This document shows positions 31,349 through 37,661 of a stretch of 64,000 nucleotides of DNA, piece by piece. The DNA lies in the NCBI GenBank assembly GCA_964594865.1, contig CAZQMZ010000002.1, positions 1,607 to 65,606 on the forward strand. Direction: 5' to 3'. How positions within the stretch are numbered: position 1 is the stretch's first letter; every line of letters starts with the position of its first letter. The notes beneath the pieces are model-generated. The model worked only from the letters and a program-made list of their open reading frames with translations. It searched no databases and was not told the origin of the DNA. Origin of the DNA: an uncultured Lachnospiraceae bacterium (GTDB lineage: Bacteria > Bacillota > Clostridia > Christensenellales > UBA1242). The translations under genes and the position numbers were made by a program.

Positions 31349-31774
31349 ATGAGATCTTCTGAAATTTCTCCAAATCCATTCGGGGCTCCTTCTTGCAGAA
31401 AATGTCACAGAACTTTGAAAAGACGCGTATCACTTGGCTTTTGGGAGGCTCTTGAAGAGATTATTGCCAGCATTTGCGATCCGTTTCATCGAACTTTATA
31501 TGGTTGCACAGGCACTGTCCCAAATGAAAAGTATGATGTATGGAAAGAAGACTGCAAAAAAATTGACGAAAAGAACAAAAAAATTCGCAGACAAAACATG
31601 GTCAGGCAGTTTATTGGAAGTAAAAAGCCAGAGATTCCATATCCGCCGCGACCACCAAGAAGAGTGCCATGTCCAAATCATTACAAATTGAGGCCATTTG
31701 GAAAATATAATCAAAGAAGCGTCAGAAAAAGAAAGACTTTTTATGATGGTGGTGGAAACATTTATTATATTTGA
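31349..31774 (+). CDS. hypothetical basic Cys/Pro-rich protein (141 aa), ORFan
   Basis: SD GGAGG lies 6 nt before the ATG. CRKC near the N-terminus, PYPPRPPRRVPCP segment. No family recognised. Confidence 0.5.
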   Translation: MRSSEISPNPFGAPSCRKCHRTLKRRVSLGFWEALEEIIASICDPFHRTLYGCTGTVPNEKYDVWKEDCKKIDEKNKKIRRQNMVRQFIGSKKPEIPYPPRPPRRVPCPNHYKLRPFGKYNQRSVRKRKTFYDGGGNIYYI

Positions 31775-31809
31775 TTTTTAAAGTTTGTTTTGAGTTTAAG
31801 GAGAACTTT

Positions 31810-31926
31810 ATGCACAGATGTCCAATATGCAATGAACTTTTGTCACCAGAAATGTTGCCGGTTGGAAAAACGGCGGGGGGGGGAGAAGTAAACTTAAAAT
31901 GGAAAACGTCCTTCCTCAGGTCATAA
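31810..31926 (+). CDS. 38-codon ORF (MHRCPICNELL...) containing a G9 run; probable 5' part of a frameshift-interrupted gene
   Basis: Strong SD AAGGAGAA. The G9 run is at 31875-31883. One additional G joins this frame to ORF 31899-32132. Confidence 0.4.
   Translation: MHRCPICNELLSPEMLPVGKTAGGGEVNLKWKTSFLRS
31875..31883 (+). repeat. homopolymeric G9 tract, copy 2
   Basis: Nine consecutive G in the context GC-G9-AGAAGTAAACTTAAAA. Confidence 0.95.
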
Positions 31927-32132
31927 CTTGGGCGATTGACACCGGAATTCGGGCTTCGATCGGCTCCGGTCGGAGTTTATATTTGACTTGCAACAACTCT
32001 GATTGTCCGGCGTGTTATAGACTCAACAACCCAATATATTTCAAAAACGGAATAGTTACGCCAACCATGGTGGGAGACCCGTTGGGAATTCGAGTGTCAC
32101 TCATGAAATCAAGATTTAAAAAACGAAGATAA
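31899..32132 (+). CDS. hypothetical 77-aa protein with CX5CPAC and a basic tail; probable 3' part of the G9-interrupted gene
   Basis: Open frame without a correctly spaced SD of its own. It is in frame with 31810 if the tract is G10. Confidence 0.45.
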   Translation: MENVLPQVITWAIDTGIRASIGSGRSLYLTCNNSDCPACYRLNNPIYFKNGIVTPTMVGDPLGIRVSLMKSRFKKRR

Positions 32133-32160
32133 ATTGTTTTGAAAAATCATGCAAAAACAC

Positions 32161-32189
32161 TTGACAACGATTGACGAAATGTTTATAAT
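32161..32189 (+). promoter_or_regulatory. consensus sigma-A promoter
   Basis: TTGACA (32161-32166), 17 nt, TATAAT (32184-32189). Confidence 0.8.
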
Positions 32190-32194
32190 ACAAA

Positions 32195-32435
32195 ATGTGT
32201 TTCGTTGTCGGAAACCCATGCTTTGAATGTGTTGGGGCAAAGCCTTGACATTTGAGCATAAACAAACAACAGGTGGCTGTGCTTCAAATGGCATAATTTG
32301 CAGTTTGCAAACTTCCAATTCCACCGATTCAAGAAATTCTTTTCTTGGAGTCATAGAAATATGATTGTGTTGTTCATGTTTGAAAAGATAAAGCATTTTT
32401 CATGGCACGAAATATATCGTGCCTTTTTTGTTTTT
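32195..32435 (+). ncRNA. orphan structured RNA or leader (~240 nt) upstream of rpsL
   Basis: Bounded by the consensus promoter and an intrinsic terminator. At least five hairpins are readable: 32199-32215, 32218-32259, 32272-32325 (with inner 32297-32311), 32326-32352 and 32404-32423. Confidence 0.5.
32404..32435 (+). terminator. intrinsic terminator (possible attenuator) upstream of rpsL
   Basis: GGCACGA / TCGTGCC stem with a 6-nt loop, followed by TTTTTTGTTTTT. Confidence 0.85.
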
Positions 32436-32530
32436 AAACAAATAAGCGAAAGACAAATCGTGACTTCGATTTAAAACTAAGTCAAGTTTGGCAGTTTGTC
32501 AAAAGACAAATGCCTTAAAAGGAGATCGAA

Positions 32531-32911
32531 ATGCCTACATTCAACCAACTTGTAAGAAAAGGAAGAAAATCTTTTGAGAAAAAGAAAAAAGCACCACTTC
32601 TTGAAGAATGCCCACAAAAGCGTGGTGTTTGCCTTTCTGTGAGAACGGCAACACCAAAAAAGCCAAACTCAGCTCTTCGTAAGATTGCCAGAGTGAAGCT
32701 TTCCAACAATCAAGAAGGGACTTGCTATATTCCTGGAATTGGCCACAATTTGCAAGAACACAGTGTTGTGCTTGTTCGTGGCGGGCGTGTTAAGGACTTG
32801 CCAGGTGTGAGATATCACATCATTCGCGGAACTCTTGACACCGCTGGCGTTGCAAACAGAAAGCAAAGCCGTTCAAAATATGGCGCAAAGAAACCAAAAG
32901 CAGGAAAATAA
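32531..32911 (+). CDS. rpsL: 30S ribosomal protein S12
   Basis: [32 protein letters not shown]. Confidence 0.97.
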
Positions 32912-33045
32912 ACCCTTCGCATTTGCAACTTGATTATCAAATTTGCAAGGATATGATTTTTTGAAAAGATTGAAAATGTCAGATTTTTGTTTGCGTAACA
33001 AAAATCAAACACATGTTGCCCATTGTGGCTTAAAAGGAGAAAACA

Positions 33046-33519
33046 ATGCCAAGAAGAAATAGTGCGGTTAAAAGAGATGTTTTGCCAGACCCAATTTATG
33101 GAAACAAAGTTGTCACAAAACTTATCAATCAAATTATGATGAGTGGAAAGAAAGGTCTTGCACAGAGAATTGTTTATGGCTCTTTTGACATTATAAAAGA
33201 AAAAACAAGTTTGGAACCTCTTGATGTCTGCCTGACAGCGATTGAAAATGTTAAGCCTATGCTTGAAACAAAAGGTCGCAGAGTTGGCGGTGCAACATAC
33301 CAAGTTCCTATGGAAATTCGTCCAGAAAGACGCCAAACACTTGCAATTCGTTGGATTGTCAACAATGCAAGAAAGAGAACAGGCGAGAGAAATATGAATG
33401 AAAAACTTGCTGGTGAACTTATGGATGCATACAACAACACAGGCGCTTCAATCAAAAAGCGCGACGAAATGCACAGAATGGCAGAAGCCAACAAGGCGTT
33501 CGCTCACTATAAGTGGTAA
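33046..33519 (+). CDS. rpsG: 30S ribosomal protein S7
   Basis: [18 protein letters not shown].., C-terminal NKAFAHYKW. Confidence 0.97.
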
Positions 33520-33695
33520 TATATGAAAACATATAGCGATGCAAAAGCAAGGCAACTTGCTGCACGAGCAAAAGGTTAAAGAAAAACTACAAAAAAATCT
33601 ACACTCATAGGCATAAAGCACATTCTAAAGACAATAATTCTATACAAATTGACAGATAAGGCAATTTTTTTGAATTAATTTTAAAGGAGAGAAAT

Positions 33696-34256
33696 ATGAC
33701 CGTTAGAAATCACCATTTAGATTATTTTATCAATGGATATTTAGACTTGCTAAACGATGACAATATTAAATATATTGCAAAAAAATCAACGGAGATGCAT
33801 TATCCAAAAGAATGGTATGACAGCATGTTCTATGAAATTTTGAATTATGAATATAAAAAAGTTGCTGGATGTATAAAAAGAGTTGATTACAGCAAAAATG
33901 AAAAAATAGTAATGTTAAAAATCATTAAATTGAACAAAAAAACAATGGAAGAGCAGAAGGTGGGTTATGTATCAATAAGCGATTATAATTTACACTTTAC
34001 AAATCTATTAATTAACAATTCGTATAAACAGAATAAAACTTTGATTGCTCAAGATTTTCCAATTATGGAAAGTGATAGTAAAGAAAATTTACATTTCCAA
34101 ACTTCTCAAGAAGAACAAAAACAAGAAGAGATTTCTCAAAATGCTTTTGTTTCTGAAATGACGAGTGCTTTTGGACGAACATATTTGAATGATTATAACA
34201 ATTATATAAACAAAATAAGAACAACACTTGAATTTAATGGTGTAAAAACCAAATAA
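33696..34256 (+). CDS. hypothetical AT-rich ORFan (186 aa) inserted between rpsG and fusA
   Basis: Strong SD AAAGGAGAG. Composition is visibly more AT-rich than the flanking ribosomal genes. No family recognised. Confidence 0.55.
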   Translation: MTVRNHHLDYFINGYLDLLNDDNIKYIAKKSTEMHYPKEWYDSMFYEILNYEYKKVAGCIKRVDYSKNEKIVMLKIIKLNKKTMEEQKVGYVSISDYNLHFTNLLINNSYKQNKTLIAQDFPIMESDSKENLHFQTSQEEQKQEEISQNAFVSEMTSAFGRTYLNDYNNYINKIRTTLEFNGVKTK

Positions 34257-34277
34257 ATTTTAAAAAAGGAGAAAAAT

Positions 34278-36356
34278 ATGGCTACCGATTTAACTATGGT
34301 ACGTAATGTCGGCATCATGGCTCACATTGACGCAGGGAAAACCACAACCACAGAACGTATTTTGTTCTATACCGGCAAAAATCATAAGATTGGCGAAGTT
34401 CATGACGGCGAAGCAACAATGGACTGGATGGCGCAAGAACAAGAACGCGGAATCACCATCACTTCAGCCTGCACAACTTGCCAATGGAAAGGACATAAAA
34501 TCAACATCATCGACACACCAGGTCACGTGGACTTCACTGTCGAAGTTGAGCGTTCTTTGAAGGTGCTTGATGGCGCTGTGCTTGTGCTTTCTGCTCGTGA
34601 CAGAGTTCAACCACAAACCGAAACAGTTTGGCGTCAATCGTCAAAATATAAAGTGCCAACAATCATCTATGTCAACAAAATGGACAGAGATGCTGCCGAT
34701 TTTTATGGTTGTATTGATTCAATTAAAGAAAGATTGAAGACAAATCCGCTTGCCATCCAAATGCCTATTGGTGAAGCAGACACTTTCAGTGGAATCATCG
34801 ATCTTATGACGATGAAAGCGGAAGTCTATGAAGACGATTTGGGAACAAAAATCGACATCGTTGAAATTCCAGAAGAATATAAAGCAAAAGCTCAAAAACT
34901 TCACGACGAAATGGTGGAAAAAATTGTTGAAACTGACGATGCTTTGCTTGAAAAATTCTTTGAAGGAGAAGAAATCTCCATCGACGAACTCAAAAAAGCA
35001 CTCCGGGCTGCAACAATTTCGCGTGCAGTTGTGCCTGTGCTTTGCGGTTCTTCATATAAAAATAAAGGTGTGCAAATGCTTTTGGATGCCATGGTGGAAC
35101 TTCTTCCAAGTCCACTTGACATCGACCACATCGAAGGAGTAAATCCAGAAACTGGCGAGTCAGAAACAAGAGCACCAAGCGAAGATGCTCCACTTGCTGG
35201 ACTTGCGTTCAAAATCATGACGGACCCATTTGTTGGTCGTCTTGCGTTCTTCCGCGTTTATTCTGGAAAGTTGACTGCGGGATCTTATGTATACAACTCC
35301 AACAAGGGTGAGAAAGAGCGTGTTGGTCGACTTATTAGAATGCATGCCAATCAAAGAGAAGAAATCAAAGAAGTTGGCGCGGGCGATATCGCTGCCATTG
35401 TTGGCTTGAAAGACACCATCACAGGAGAAACACTTTGTGACGAAAAGCATCCAATTGTGTTGGAAAGCATGGATTTCGCTGATCCTGTCATCAGCATGTC
35501 GATTGAACCAAAAACCAAACTTATGCAAGAAAAAATGGTGCTTGCACTCATCAAATTGGCGGAAGAAGACCCAACTTTCAAGACATACACCGATCAAGAG
35601 ACAGGGCAAACAATCATTGCTGGTATGGGCGAACTTCACCTTGAAATCATCGTTGACAGACTTCTTCGTGAATTCAAAGTGGAAGCAAATGTCGGCAAAC
35701 CACAAGTTGCATACAAAGAAACAATCCGCAAACCTGCCAGAGCGGAAGGCAAATTCATTCGCCAAAGCGGTGGTAAGGGACAGTATGGTCACTGTATCAT
35801 CGACATCGAACCACTTCCAGCTGGGTCGGGCTATCAATTTGAAGACAAAACCGTGGGCGGATCCATTCCAAAAGAATACATCCAACCAATTAACAATGGA
35901 ATTCAAGAAGCAAGCAAAAACGGCGTCATTGCTGGATATGAAACCGTTGACTTCAAAGTCACAGTCATTGATGGTTCATATCACGAAGTGGACTCTTCCG
36001 AAATGGCGTTCAAAATTGCTGGATCAATGGCATTTAAAGACGGCGCATTGAAGGCAAATCCTGTTCTTCTTGAACCTGTGATGAAGGTGCAAGTTGAAGT
36101 CCCTGATGAATATCTTGGAACAGTTATGGGCAACCTCACTTCTCGTCGCGGAATTTTGACAGGAAATGAAACAAGACCGGGTGTGCAAATTGTCAATGCC
36201 GAAGTTCCACTTGGAGAAATGTTTGGCTATGCCACCGACCTTCGTTCTCAAACACAAGGACGCGGAACCTTCACAATGGAATTTTTGAAATATTCAGAAG
36301 TTCCAAAGAACATCGCTGAAACCATTGTTGGACAGAGAAAGAAAGAAGCAAAATAA
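34278..36356 (+). CDS. fusA: elongation factor G
   Basis: [22 protein letters not shown]-domain motifs. 692 aa. Confidence 0.97.
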
Positions 36357-36458
36357 TTTCAAAAAAAATTGAAAAACATCTTAAAATCGTTTTGAGATTA
36401 AAAAAAAATATGATAAAATGTCATAGTAGACAAAAAAAAGAAAAAGGAGAAATATAAA

Positions 36459-37661
36459 ATGGCTACAGGTAAATATGATAACACCAAACCACACGTTAAC
36501 GTTGGAACAATCGGACACGTTGACCATGGCAAGACCACCCTTACTGCTGCCATCACTATGTATAGTGCTGCAAAGGGTTATGCTCAAAAAATGAGATATG
36601 ATGAAATTGACAAGGCCCCAGAAGAAAAGGCTCGTGGAATCACAATCAACACAGCACACGTTGAGTATCAAACAGACAAACGTCACTATGCTCACGTTGA
36701 CTGCCCGGGACACGCTGACTATGTTAAGAACATGATCACAGGTGCTGCTCAAATGGATGGTGCCATCCTTGTTGTTGCTGCAACTGACGGTCCAATGCCT
36801 CAAACAAGAGAACACATCTTGCTTGCAAGACAGGTTGGAGTTCCATATATCGTTGTGTTCATGAACAAAACTGATCAAGTTGACGACCCAGAACTTCTTG
36901 ATCTTGTTGAAATGGAAATCCGTGAACTTTTGTCAGAATATGGATTCCCAGGGGACGACACTCCAATCATCAAAGGTTCAGCTCTCAAAGCTTTGGAAGC
37001 TGCTCAAGCAGGAAATGTGACAGATCCATCTTGCGCTTGCGTTCAAGAACTTTTGGATGCATTGGATTCATACATCCCAGAACCAGAAAGAGACACAGAC
37101 AAACCTTTCCTTATGCCAATTGAAGACGTGTTCACAATCACAGGTCGTGGAACAGTTGCAACAGGCAGAATTGAAAGAGGAAAAATTAAGGTCAACGACG
37201 TTGTTGAAATCGTTGGTATGGGCGCAAAGAAACAAACAGTTGTCACTGGCGTTGAAATGTTCAGAAAGACAGTTGACGAAGGTATCGCAGGATACAATGT
37301 CGGCATTCTTCTTCGCGGAATTCAAAGAACAGAAATCGAAAGAGGTCAAGTTCTTTGCAAACCAGGTTCAATTAACCCACACACAAAATTCACTGCAGAA
37401 GTGTATGTTTTGAAGAAAGAAGAAGGTGGACGTCACACACCATTCTTCAATGGATATAGACCACAATTCTATTTCAGAACAACTGACGTAACCGGAACAA
37501 TTGAACTTGAAAAAGGCGTTGAAATGGTTATGCCTGGTGACAATGTCAGAATGACAATCACTTTGAACAAAGAAATCGCCATCGAACAAGGACTTCGTTT
37601 CGCTATCCGTGAAGGTGGCAGAACTGTTGGTTCTGGTGTTGTTGCATCAATCATTGAATAA
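36459..37661 (+). CDS. tuf: elongation factor Tu
   Basis: [21 protein letters not shown] motifs. 400 aa. Confidence 0.98.

Follow-up and report, generated by a model that had tools for sequence, protein, structure and literature searches.

In the 64,000-nucleotide stretch of DNA analysed here (the window), the DNA preceding rpsL probably encodes a lineage-specific 5' leader of the str operon (rpsL-rpsG-fusA-tuf), through which a protein made from the operon most likely attenuates its own expression by feedback. The family to which this leader belongs occurs only in one clade of uncultured gut Clostridia, is uncatalogued, and numbers more than 100 species-level examples. The reading is built on a conserved fold, a link to rpsL and to no other gene, a promoter, a terminator, the lack of a second promoter, and complementarity between the first hairpin (P1) and the 5' half of the terminator; the protein signal, which we infer from these features, would more likely be S7 than S12. 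Table 1 lists the features of the leader and its operon.

Table 1. Features of the rpsL leader and the downstream operon in the window.
Feature	Position	Strand	Remarks
Sigma-70-type promoter	32161-32189	+	TTGACA 32161-32166, 17-nt spacer, TATAAT 32184-32189
Conserved leader core (P1, P2, four-way junction P3-P6)	32190-32383	+	Covariance model R1, 101.6 bits, E 1e-19
Predicted antiterminator, 5' arm	32196-32225	+	Partner 32389-32416 (linker, terminator 5' half, loop)
P1 hairpin, GUUUC/GAAAC	32199-32215	+	7-nt loop GUUGUCG at 32204-32210
P2 hairpin, closed by AUGCUU/AAGCAU	32218-32259	+	Distal part of variable length among relatives
P3 5' strand, AAACAAACAACA	32260-32271	+	Partner 32368-32381
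P4 stem, GGUGG/CCACC	32272-32325	+	Arms 32272-32276 and 32321-32325, stacked on P3
P5 hairpin	32328-32349	+	6/7 pairs changed on both sides
P6 hairpin	32350-32365	+	4/4 model pairs changed on both sides
P3 3' strand, UGUUGUU-CA-UGUUU	32368-32381	+	2-nt bulge (C plus a purine)
Linker with AAAGCAU (32390-32396) and UUUC	32382-32403	+	Conserved in terminator-bearing leaders, missing from terminator-less ones
Intrinsic terminator, GGCACGA-AAUAUA-UCGUGCC plus U-tract	32404-32429	+	Stem-loop 32404-32423, −10.7 kcal/mol
GACAAA box	32452-32457	+	Complementary to P1 loop
P7 hairpin, UGACUU/AAGUCA	32461-32484	+	Conserved loop CGAUUUAAAACU
Second GACAAA copy	32505-32510	+	Inside hairpin 32490-32514
Shine-Dalgarno sequence and rpsL start codon	32519-32533	+	AAGGAG 32519-32524; start codon 32531-32533
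Controlled operon	32531-37661	+	ORF list; Pfam families of the same genes in relatives
rpsL	32531-32911	+	
rpsG	33046-33519	+	
Unknown ORF, 186 amino acids	33696-34256	+	
fusA	34278-36356	+	
tuf	36459-37661	+	

Distribution and linkage to rpsL

A genome search with a 20-nt pattern from the core matched 119 loci, of which 105 are followed on the same strand, at a distance of 157-437 nt, by the S12 gene; the remaining matches are at contig ends or are chance matches in other phyla (five). S12 homologues that were sampled independently all carry the element, seven of them strongly and two in a weak, divergent form. There is one copy per locus, with none elsewhere in ~790 kb or elsewhere in the window. 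The gene on the upstream side differs among relatives (ligA, sigma factors, an ABC transporter, and others), and the element thus travels with rpsL rather than with its other neighbour. Of the marks by which ribosomal-protein leaders are recognised, the element shows a location in the 5' UTR, consistent linkage to a ribosomal-protein operon, and a secondary structure supported by covariation; of those of an attenuator, it shows a Rho-independent terminator that follows the promoter and precedes the first gene, and no promoter comes after it.

Fold of the conserved core

The core is the sole strong match to model R1 in the window. Over 99 sequences, 97.7% of the pair cells hold a standard pair, compared with 33-51% when the partners are slid against each other, and 19 of the 34 pairs have changed on both sides; 438 cells show double changes, compared with 125 ± 14 in shuffles. 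An alignment made with MAFFT, and thus not fitted to the model, still gave compensatory changes in 18 of the 34 pairs, which is the result that an earlier note on this DNA had suggested looking for in homologous upstream regions. The predicted fold of positions 32195-32437 has an energy of −70.3 kcal/mol (shuffles, −54.0 ± 4.5; z = −3.64).

All six pairs of P1 have changed on both sides, and 98% of its cells are paired, while UGUC in its loop is invariant across the family. P2 of the window bears a long extension capped by GGGGC-AAA-GCCUU; a short form is also found among relatives. P3 is the long-range helix that closes the four-way junction: its 12 pairs are formed in 98.7% of cells, but its sequence is nearly invariant and only one pair has changed on both sides. 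P4, in which a G-C pair is exchanged for A-U in 23 of 94 sequences, encloses inserted hairpins that vary; the inner TTTGCA/TGCAAA pairing is one such insert, and one relative (L001) has 54 nt more at this place. A conserved GA (32326-32327) precedes P5, and the junction nucleotides as a whole (GA, AG-U, and AU-Y-G) are invariant or nearly so.

Every stem that the earlier note had read by eye (P1, P2, P4, and what is now P5) is present in the window and conserved in the family, with variation in the length of P2 and in the insert of P4. P6 and the long-range helix P3 were absent from its list. That note had also pointed to a direct repeat and proposed that the copies were alternative pairing partners; the repeat is real, its conserved part being AUGCUU in the P2 5' strand and AUGUUU at the 3' end of P3, but the proposed partners did not hold up. 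Both copies are complementary to AAGCAU.

Promoter and transcript start

The window promoter matches the consensus at 12 of 12 positions and is the top-scoring site within 9 kb. Of 106 distinct leaders, 80 have a 12/12 promoter in this position and 101 have one of at least 11/12. Transcription would start at about 32195-32197, a few bases before P1, which places P1 at the extreme 5' end of the predicted transcript. No usable promoter was found in the 100 nt between the terminator and rpsL (32531), where the best match in the window is 7/12; in 87 of 89 leaders nothing downstream of the terminator scores above 9/12. The perfect promoter and the want of a convincing one before rpsL, both read from the window by the earlier note, recur in most of the leaders scored. 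A second promoter using the GACA box (TTGACA/ATGACA) as its −35 element was considered and rejected because the −10 matches are poor; moreover, in the leaders that have no terminator, a mere 12-14 nt separate the box from the Shine-Dalgarno sequence that follows.

Terminator and predicted antiterminator

Among terminator-like sites, the hairpin at 32404-32423 with the TTTTTTGTTT after it ranks first. It was noticed earlier as a strong terminator behind the hairpin-rich segment, and indeed 89 of 107 distinct leaders have a terminator in the corresponding position. A further 15 distinct leaders keep the whole core with neither the U-tract nor the AAGCAU linker. The function of the core therefore cannot be only the control of this terminator, and termination is not the leader's only output.

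The predicted alternative to the terminator form joins the 5' end of the RNA (P1 and the P2 5' strand) to the linker and the terminator 5' half; the resulting antiterminator helix would exclude P1, P2, and the terminator. When the 3' half of the terminator is blocked, the computed fold reaches −68.9 kcal/mol, compared with −69.4 kcal/mol for the terminator form. The antiterminator pairing is predicted in 85 of 87 leaders (97.7%), as against 36% and 49% in shuffled controls, a comparison to be read in the knowledge that this baseline is high to begin with and that the sequences are related by descent. Terminator-bearing leaders fall into two subgroups by their P1 5' strand. Where this strand is GUGUUUCG, as in the window, the terminator 5' half reads GRCRCGR(R)A in 40 of 44 leaders; where it is AUGCUUC, 37 of 43 terminator 5' halves contain GRCAAC, the complement of the P1 loop. 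All of the variation in the terminator 5' half consists of A/G opposite a U of P1. In 38 leaders, 95% of cells are compatible with the antiterminator, compared with 24-51% when the strands are slid. Changes are one-sided only, with no pair changed on both sides, because the 5' arm is invariant. Within the window-type P1 subgroup, the linker reads GCAUAU in all nine leaders that have a 5' AUAUGC and in none of the other 29 (n = 38). If the antiterminator forms in the cell, as this complementarity suggests, it would span ~190 nt and must displace hairpins that fold earlier, which is unusual.

A different antiterminator, in which the P3 3' strand (UUCGUGUU) would pair with the terminator 5' half, was also considered. 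It requires the bulge purine to be G, which holds in ~30% of leaders, and it shows no correlation with terminator type; the pairing between P1 and the terminator 5' half was preferred.

Between the terminator and rpsL

A GACA box follows the terminator, or the hairpin without a U-tract, in 105 of 105 leaders. The box and the P1 loop are both invariant, and a pseudoknot between them therefore shows no covariation; an extended 8-bp match in one relative (L031) speaks for it, and uncompensated AUGUC loops in two others (L011 and L016) speak against it. The loop of P7 is present in 38 of the 44 leaders of the window-type P1 subgroup, carried on at least eight different complementary stems. Note that the universal GACA box and the P7 loop both fall outside the attenuation model and are not explained by it. 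Among relatives, the rpsL-rpsG spacer varies from 20 to 533 nt and no conserved element was found in it, and the leader is thus the only conserved non-coding element of the operon.

Searches against known RNAs

Scans with Rfam 15 at the gathering score gave no match in the 64-kb window or in 12 related loci, and permissive scans of the window and two relatives (L044 and L014) returned matches at chance level only, the best reaching 26 bits where 56 are needed. The comparison with 6S RNA, ribosomal leaders, and riboswitches that the earlier note had recommended thus yielded no known family; tmRNA, SRP RNA, and the known ribosomal leaders rpsL_psuedo and rpsL_ricks were likewise ruled out. The last two are presumably rpsL-leaders of Naville and Gautheret, discussed below. 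A separate scan for tRNA and tmRNA found none. When five leaders were aligned locally to E. coli 16S rRNA, their top scores did not exceed those of shuffles (z from −1.5 to 0.4), so that mimicry of rRNA, a frequent though not obligatory trait of ribosomal-protein leaders, has no support at the level of sequence; a ACAAGCGGUGG-like 16S match that had been spotted by eye proved to be at chance level. The determinants of S7 binding in E. coli are CCA and UUGGR at a junction (PMC3616713); CCACC and UUGGAG do occur at the window junction, but UUGGR is not conserved in the family, and this candidate was dropped.

Proposed mechanism and alternatives

That the element acts in cis as a leader of rpsL-rpsG-fusA, with expression through read-through of the terminator, was the central proposal of the earlier note, and it is supported by the covarying fold, the conserved terminator, adjacency to rpsL despite the varied upstream gene, the lack of a second promoter, and the competing pairing predicted in nearly all terminator-bearing leaders. 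In the mechanism that we consider most likely, the linker and terminator 5' half would, on emerging from RNA polymerase, pair with the 5' end of the RNA, that is, with both strands and the loop of P1 and with the 5' strand of P2. The long antiterminator helix would then form, and the polymerase would read through into rpsL. Once an operon protein exceeded the free 16S rRNA, it would bind the folded domain of P1, P2, and the four-way junction; P1 and P2 would be kept closed, and the terminator would form, leaving a dead-end RNA of ~235 nt. S7 is favoured over S12 as this protein because it binds rRNA directly.

Riboswitches classically show this arrangement too, with a terminator and its competing helix placed behind a folded domain, and P1 and the four-way junction might instead bind a small molecule or another RNA that signals translational capacity (such as a nucleotide, an alarmone, or a tRNA-like partner) and so set the choice between terminator and antiterminator. 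The invariant or nearly invariant junction nucleotides and P1 loop are aptamer-like, and mimicry of the rRNA sequence was not detected. We nevertheless judge a sensor of this kind unlikely: the cis-regulators described for ribosomal-protein operons bind ribosomal proteins, none of the riboswitch models in Rfam matches, and much of the conservation lies within helix P3, a pattern commoner in protein recognition or alternative pairing than in ligand pockets. If true, the transcription of S12, S7, EF-G, and EF-Tu would be gated directly; this would be the first core translation-factor operon under control of the riboswitch type, with a long-range antiterminator that the transcript closes with its own 5' end. 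It is similarly doubtful that the leader is a structural 5' UTR with no feedback, which would protect the very abundant str mRNA from 5' exonucleases or serve as a platform for processing or ribosome loading, its terminator merely trimming promoter output by a fixed fraction. P1 does stand at the extreme 5' end behind a consensus promoter, and 15 distinct leaders have the fold and no terminator; but a stabiliser has no need of a four-way junction whose junction and loop nucleotides stay invariant in over 100 species, nor of a terminator 5' half that follows the P1 sequence of its own subgroup.

An RNA with its own consensus promoter and strong terminator, and more stably folded than its shuffles, might also be a stand-alone sRNA, the alternative raised in the earlier note; its ~235-nt product would act in trans, e.g., as a protein sponge, and read-through into rpsL would be incidental. 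This we consider very unlikely, as the element turned up nowhere but before rpsL, which itself lacks a promoter, the 15 terminator-less leaders would make no discrete sRNA, and neither 6S nor any other sRNA family is matched. Finally, translation of a leader peptide might control the terminator: an AUG at 32195, the predicted transcript start, opens a 17-codon ORF, as had been pointed out. The ORF exists, but neither it nor its peptide is conserved: the AUG is present in only 61 of 106 leaders, and the ORFs span 8-89 codons. The ORF also lacks a Shine-Dalgarno sequence, and substitutions keep base pairs, not codons. A leader-peptide attenuator is, for practical purposes, refuted. Feedback by an operon-encoded protein remains our preferred reading.

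Significance

We know of no established account of how the synthesis of S12, S7, EF-G, and EF-Tu is balanced in Firmicutes. A 2020 survey of new ribosomal leaders reported none for the str operon (PMC7247131). With more than 100 species-level examples, a well-supported four-way junction, and a clear terminator, the choice between S7 and S12 can be put to the test in vitro. The covariance model can serve to annotate genomes of uncultured gut Clostridia that have an unannotated gap of 300-600 nt before rpsL, and the 5'-end antiterminator, if confirmed, would be an example of a long-range switch design.

Comparison with known systems

The terminator-type leaders of Firmicutes, such as those of L20 (infC-rpmI-rplT) and L10, consist of a structured leader followed by a terminator, and binding of the protein, which is known in both cases, favours termination; their sequences and folds are unrelated to those of the window leader, which has no Rfam match. 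One relative (L044) gave a weak match to the cis-regulatory freshwater-2 RNA (RF02980; 25 bits, E 0.03-0.07). This match takes in the terminator hairpin, the second hairpin, whose loop is A-rich, and the region of the Shine-Dalgarno sequence and AUG, leaving the conserved core uncovered; it is far below the gathering score of 49.9, falls to 15 bits in L014, and is lacking in the window. The family thus matches none in Rfam 15, but its position has precedents in other phyla.

The earlier note knew of no leader described at this position, but rpsL leaders or attenuators are on record for lineages other than this one (PMC2965389, PMC2704228). Those that Naville and Gautheret (2010) named rpsL-leaders, from Listeria, Xanthomonas, Pseudomonas, and Rickettsia, lie, like the window leader, between a promoter and the rpsL of rpsL-rpsG-fusA-tuf. 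An intrinsic terminator would stop transcription prematurely there, a putative antiterminator competes with it, and S7 or another protein is presumed to exert feedback; the authors found no sequence or structure common to their variants (PMC2965389). The window family differs from them in its four-way junction, in its use of the 5'-terminal hairpin as an antiterminator arm, and in its restriction to a Clostridia clade. The Pelagibacter rpsL motif (Meyer et al. 2009) belongs to marine Alphaproteobacteria; its bulged stem opens into a three-stem junction, and it is located after rpoC, with no terminator described. It is likewise a covarying, multi-stem 5' UTR of rpsL that is lineage-restricted, mostly metagenomic, and has no ligand assigned (PMC2704228). 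Going by its description, it is set apart from the window leader by the latter's P1, P2, and four-way junction, its own promoter, and, usually, a terminator.

In E. coli, S7 represses the str operon through an operator in the rpsL-rpsG spacer, which acts on translational coupling and is found only in Gammaproteobacteria (PMC3616713). The operon is the same, and a primary rRNA-binding protein represses its own operon there as is proposed here; unlike the E. coli operator, the leader of the window lies upstream of rpsL and most likely acts on transcription.

The leader region and its fold

The leader segment has a folding energy of -70.3 kcal/mol, against -54.0 ± 4.5 kcal/mol for shuffles (z = -3.64), and the consensus promoter and strong terminator that an earlier note had read at its two ends from the sequence both hold up, each being the best site of its kind in the DNA scanned (see the table). 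The fold was obtained with RNAalifold from 53 compact members in a plain MAFFT alignment. P1 is a hairpin of 5-6 bp whose loop, GUUGUCG(G), contains an invariant UGUC; P2, with AUGCUU/AAGCAU as its closing stem, ranges from 4 bp to >60 nt; and P3 is a long-range helix in which AAACAAACRRCA is paired with UGYUGUU-CR-UGUUU. P4 stacks on P3 and is followed by P5 and P6, the four helices P3-P6 forming a four-way junction whose linkers GA, AG-U, and AU-Y-G are conserved. The stems P1, P2, P4, and P5 had already been recognized, whereas P3 and P6 were overlooked.

Features of the leader region mapped in the window
Feature	Position	Strand	Remarks
Sigma-70 promoter	32161-32189	+	12/12 match, top site of 9-kb scan
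P1	32199-32215	+	alignment fold mapped to window
P2	32218-32259	+	alignment fold mapped to window
P3	32260-32271 with 32368-32381	+	alignment fold mapped to window
P4	32272-32276 with 32321-32325	+	alignment fold mapped to window
P5	32328-32349	+	alignment fold mapped to window
P6	32350-32365	+	alignment fold mapped to window
Terminator	32404-32423, then TTTTTTGTTT	+	best terminator-like site of region
P7 hairpin	32461-32484	+	between GACA box and Shine-Dalgarno sequence; conserved 11-nt loop NGAUUUAAAAC
rpsL Shine-Dalgarno and ATG	ATG 32531	+	~100 nt past terminator
186-aa ORF	33696-34256	+	between rpsG and fusA; no Pfam match

RNAalifold reported compensatory changes in 18 of the 34 predicted pairs of the 53-member alignment, and the covariance model built from it found exactly one strong match per locus in ~790 kb of related DNA and one in the window (32190-32383, 101.6 bits). 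In the resulting set of 99 distinct sequences, standard pairs account for 97.7% of the pair cells, compared with 33-51% when the partners are slid; both sides have changed in 19/34 pairs, and double changes occupy 438 cells versus 125 ± 14 in column shuffles. Covariation extends to nearly every pair of P1, P5, and P6. The sequence of P3 is almost invariant, which suggests that this helix is under a second constraint, e.g., protein contact or alternative pairing. Covariance searches against known RNA families gave no Rfam match at gathering score across the whole 64 kb, and a permissive scan of 31900-32700 returned only chance-level matches to unrelated families; no tRNA or tmRNA genes were found in the window.

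Gene order downstream of rpsL is rpsG, the 186-aa ORF of unknown function, fusA, and tuf. The 186-aa ORF is also present in the related locus L001 and is absent from loci L005, L011, and L014, whose rpsG-fusA spacer is shorter. Upstream, the interval from ligA to the leader (31349-32132) is filled by three short overlapping ORFs of 141, 51, and 77 aa, none with a Pfam match, among which the reading frame shifts at a run of nine Gs (31875-31883); they could be a frameshifted gene or a homopolymer assembly error. At the matching place, L001 carries a 461-aa DUF285/LRR gene that is unrelated to these ORFs.

Distribution among relatives

S12 homologues were taken from the protein database and their contigs fetched. 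Every one of these contigs carries homologous sequence directly 5' of rpsL, beginning a few bases past a TTGACA-17-TATAAT promoter, which matches the consensus at 12/12 positions in 80 of 106 leaders and at ≥11/12 in 101. The gene farther upstream varies (ligA, two sigma-70 genes, an ABC transporter, a large repeat protein), so the element goes with rpsL. L001 (GCA_964400145.1), the nearest distinct relative, is 80.6% identical to the window from the promoter onward, is unrelated 5' of it, and has a 54-nt insertion within one hairpin of the leader.

The most conserved 20-mer, GCATAAACAAACRRCARGTG, was used as a pattern to scan a single genome of each species and matched at least 119 loci; nearly all matches listed were MAGs labelled as uncultured Clostridia, Christensenella/Catabacter, or Candidatus Caccovivens and derived from gut samples of animals and humans. 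Among the matches listed, an S12 gene lies 157-437 nt downstream on the same strand in 105/119. Nine of the other 14 end at a contig or locus boundary, and five are chance matches in Verrucomicrobia, Lentisphaerae, and Bacteroidota that have no 3' half of the element. The family is wider than this pattern, because locus L144 scores 95 bits with the model without having the exact 20-mer, and weak matches (17-25 bits) occur upstream of rpsL in the more distant relatives L020/L021 (2248-2372) and L142/L143 (1242-1424), whose S12 is 86-88% identical. The P3 strands of these divergent leaders are altered (e.g., AUAAACACUAGCACA with UGUGUUAC-UGUUU), and their sequences hint at a wider superfamily.

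Terminator, read-through, and the GACA box

The stretch between P3 and the start codon was compared in 107 distinct leaders. An intrinsic terminator, beginning 18-26 nt past P3, is present in 89, and by eye a few further leaders have an imperfect one; the linker of terminator-bearing leaders contains a conserved AAGCAU and then a U-rich stretch. The best promoter-like match in the interval from the terminator to rpsL scores ≤9/12 in 87/89 leaders and 7/12 in the window, where the earlier note had likewise seen no promoter. Because this interval has no good match, rpsL expression in terminator-bearing species, including that of the window, must, to judge from sequence, come from read-through.

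In 15 distinct leaders, the shortest of all, a small G+C-rich hairpin without a U-tract or AAGCAU linker takes the place of the terminator, and the P1-P6 core is unchanged; the core therefore has a role independent of the terminator and may affect translation or stability, perhaps via the GACA box. This sub-clade (L011, L014, L016, L026, L033, L038, L051, L063, L074, L082, L112, L121, L125, and duplicates) keeps the promoter, P1-P6, and the box, with the ribosome-binding site ~60 nt past P3.

The GACA(A) box (window 32452-32457 and 32505-32510) stands right after the terminator or U-less hairpin in 105/105 leaders and is complementary to the invariant UGUC of the P1 loop. Its distance from the hairpin is fixed, that from the Shine-Dalgarno sequence being 12-268 nt overall and 12-14 nt in terminator-less species. 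Loop GUUGUCAU and box AUGACAAC match across 8 bp in locus L031; L011 and L016 have AUGUC loops without a compensating change in the box. The P7 loop occurs in 38/44 leaders of the window-like P1 subgroup, on at least eight different complementary stems, and shares GAUUU with the core junction strand CCGAUU.

A predicted antiterminator

When the window transcript was refolded without the 3' half of the terminator, a 26-bp helix (32196-32225/32389-32416) displaced P1 and P2 and left the four-way junction unaffected. In this predicted helix, the 5' strand and loop of P1 pair with the 5' half and loop of the terminator, the P1 3' strand GAAA pairs with UUUC, and the P2 5' strand AUGCUUUG pairs with the linker UAAAGCAU; antiterminator and terminator forms are nearly isoenergetic (-68.9 and -69.4 kcal/mol). 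The terminator 5' half is predicted to pair with the first 32 nt in 85/87 terminator-bearing leaders, whose sequences are related by descent, versus 36% with the 5' region shuffled and 49% with the terminator half shuffled.

These leaders form two subgroups by P1, and their terminator sequence is unusually constrained and tracks P1. Where the P1 5' strand is GUGUUUCG, as in the window, 40/44 terminator 5' halves read GRCRCGR(R)A, complementary to UUUCG-U-UGUC; where P1 is AUGCUUC-GUUGUCG, 37/43 contain GRCAAC, the complement of the loop. In 38 window-type leaders, the proposed 10-bp segment has paired bases in 95% of cells, versus 24-51% when slid, and its six variable positions are all A/G facing a U of P1; because the 5' arm is constant throughout, these leaders have no double changes. 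In the linker, GCAUAU occurs in nine leaders, precisely those whose 5' part has AUAUGC. Given the invariant arm, the kinship of the sequences, and a structure derived from one of them, the antiterminator is a well-motivated prediction.

Proposed mechanism and alternatives

By default, the linker and terminator 5' half would invade the weak P1 and P2 hairpins, forming the antiterminator and allowing transcription of the operon; a bound factor would instead hold the P1/P2/junction domain, allowing the terminator to form and a ~235-nt RNA to be released. An operon-encoded protein would be the most economical choice for this factor, because all cis-regulators of ribosomal-protein operons known to us work that way. 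S7 is our preferred candidate, since it is among the primary binders of 16S rRNA and in E. coli represses the str operon (PMC3616713), with S12 as second choice. The leader has no sequence similarity to 16S rRNA beyond that of shuffles, so rRNA mimicry lacks support and any naming of the effector is purely inferential.

Linkage to rpsL, covariation, and the missing rpsL promoter support the proposal of the earlier note that this is a cis-regulatory leader of the str operon. We are highly confident that it is a functional cis-acting RNA and lean, with much less assurance, toward the complete model, in which an operon protein controls the terminator/antiterminator choice; any one named protein would be a doubtful choice. 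A riboswitch-type sensor would fit the conserved junction and loop nucleotides and the aptamer-plus-terminator layout but is without known precedent for ribosomal-protein operons of this kind and matches no model, and we hold it unlikely. Equally improbable is a purely structural 5' UTR, which accounts for the terminator-less species but leaves both the invariant junction and the P1-tracking terminator unexplained. The stand-alone sRNA once considered conflicts with the invariable association with rpsL, the existence of terminator-less species, and an rpsL without its own promoter, and is less probable still. Attenuation by a leader peptide, suggested by a 17-codon ORF, can practically be dismissed, as the peptide is not conserved among leaders.

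Comparison with known systems

Faint resemblance to Rfam RF02980 (freshwater-2; 49.9 bits needed) was detected in two related loci, L044 (2905-2984, 25 bits) and L014 (2410-2503, 15 bits), over the terminator, second hairpin, and Shine-Dalgarno/AUG region; the permissive Rfam scan gave no such match in the window. Full-text literature searches returned no published description of this leader family, and a 2020 catalogue of 20 new ribosomal leaders contains none for S12 or S7 (PMC7247131). The earlier note knew of no leader described at this position, but an 'rpsL motif' lies 5' of rpsL in Pelagibacter (PMC2704228). Ribosomal-protein leaders or attenuators preceding rpsL are therefore already known as a kind of element, while the family, its fold, and the predicted 5'-end antiterminator appear to be new. 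The Pelagibacter motif is a three-stem junction, whereas the present leader has a four-way junction. The rpsL-rpsG spacer (window 32912-33045) is unconserved in this family, with lengths of 20-533 nt; thus, the operon has no conserved non-coding element other than the leader, and the position of the E. coli-type S7 operator is not used. E. coli S7 acts in that spacer, whereas the conserved element of this family lies upstream of rpsL.
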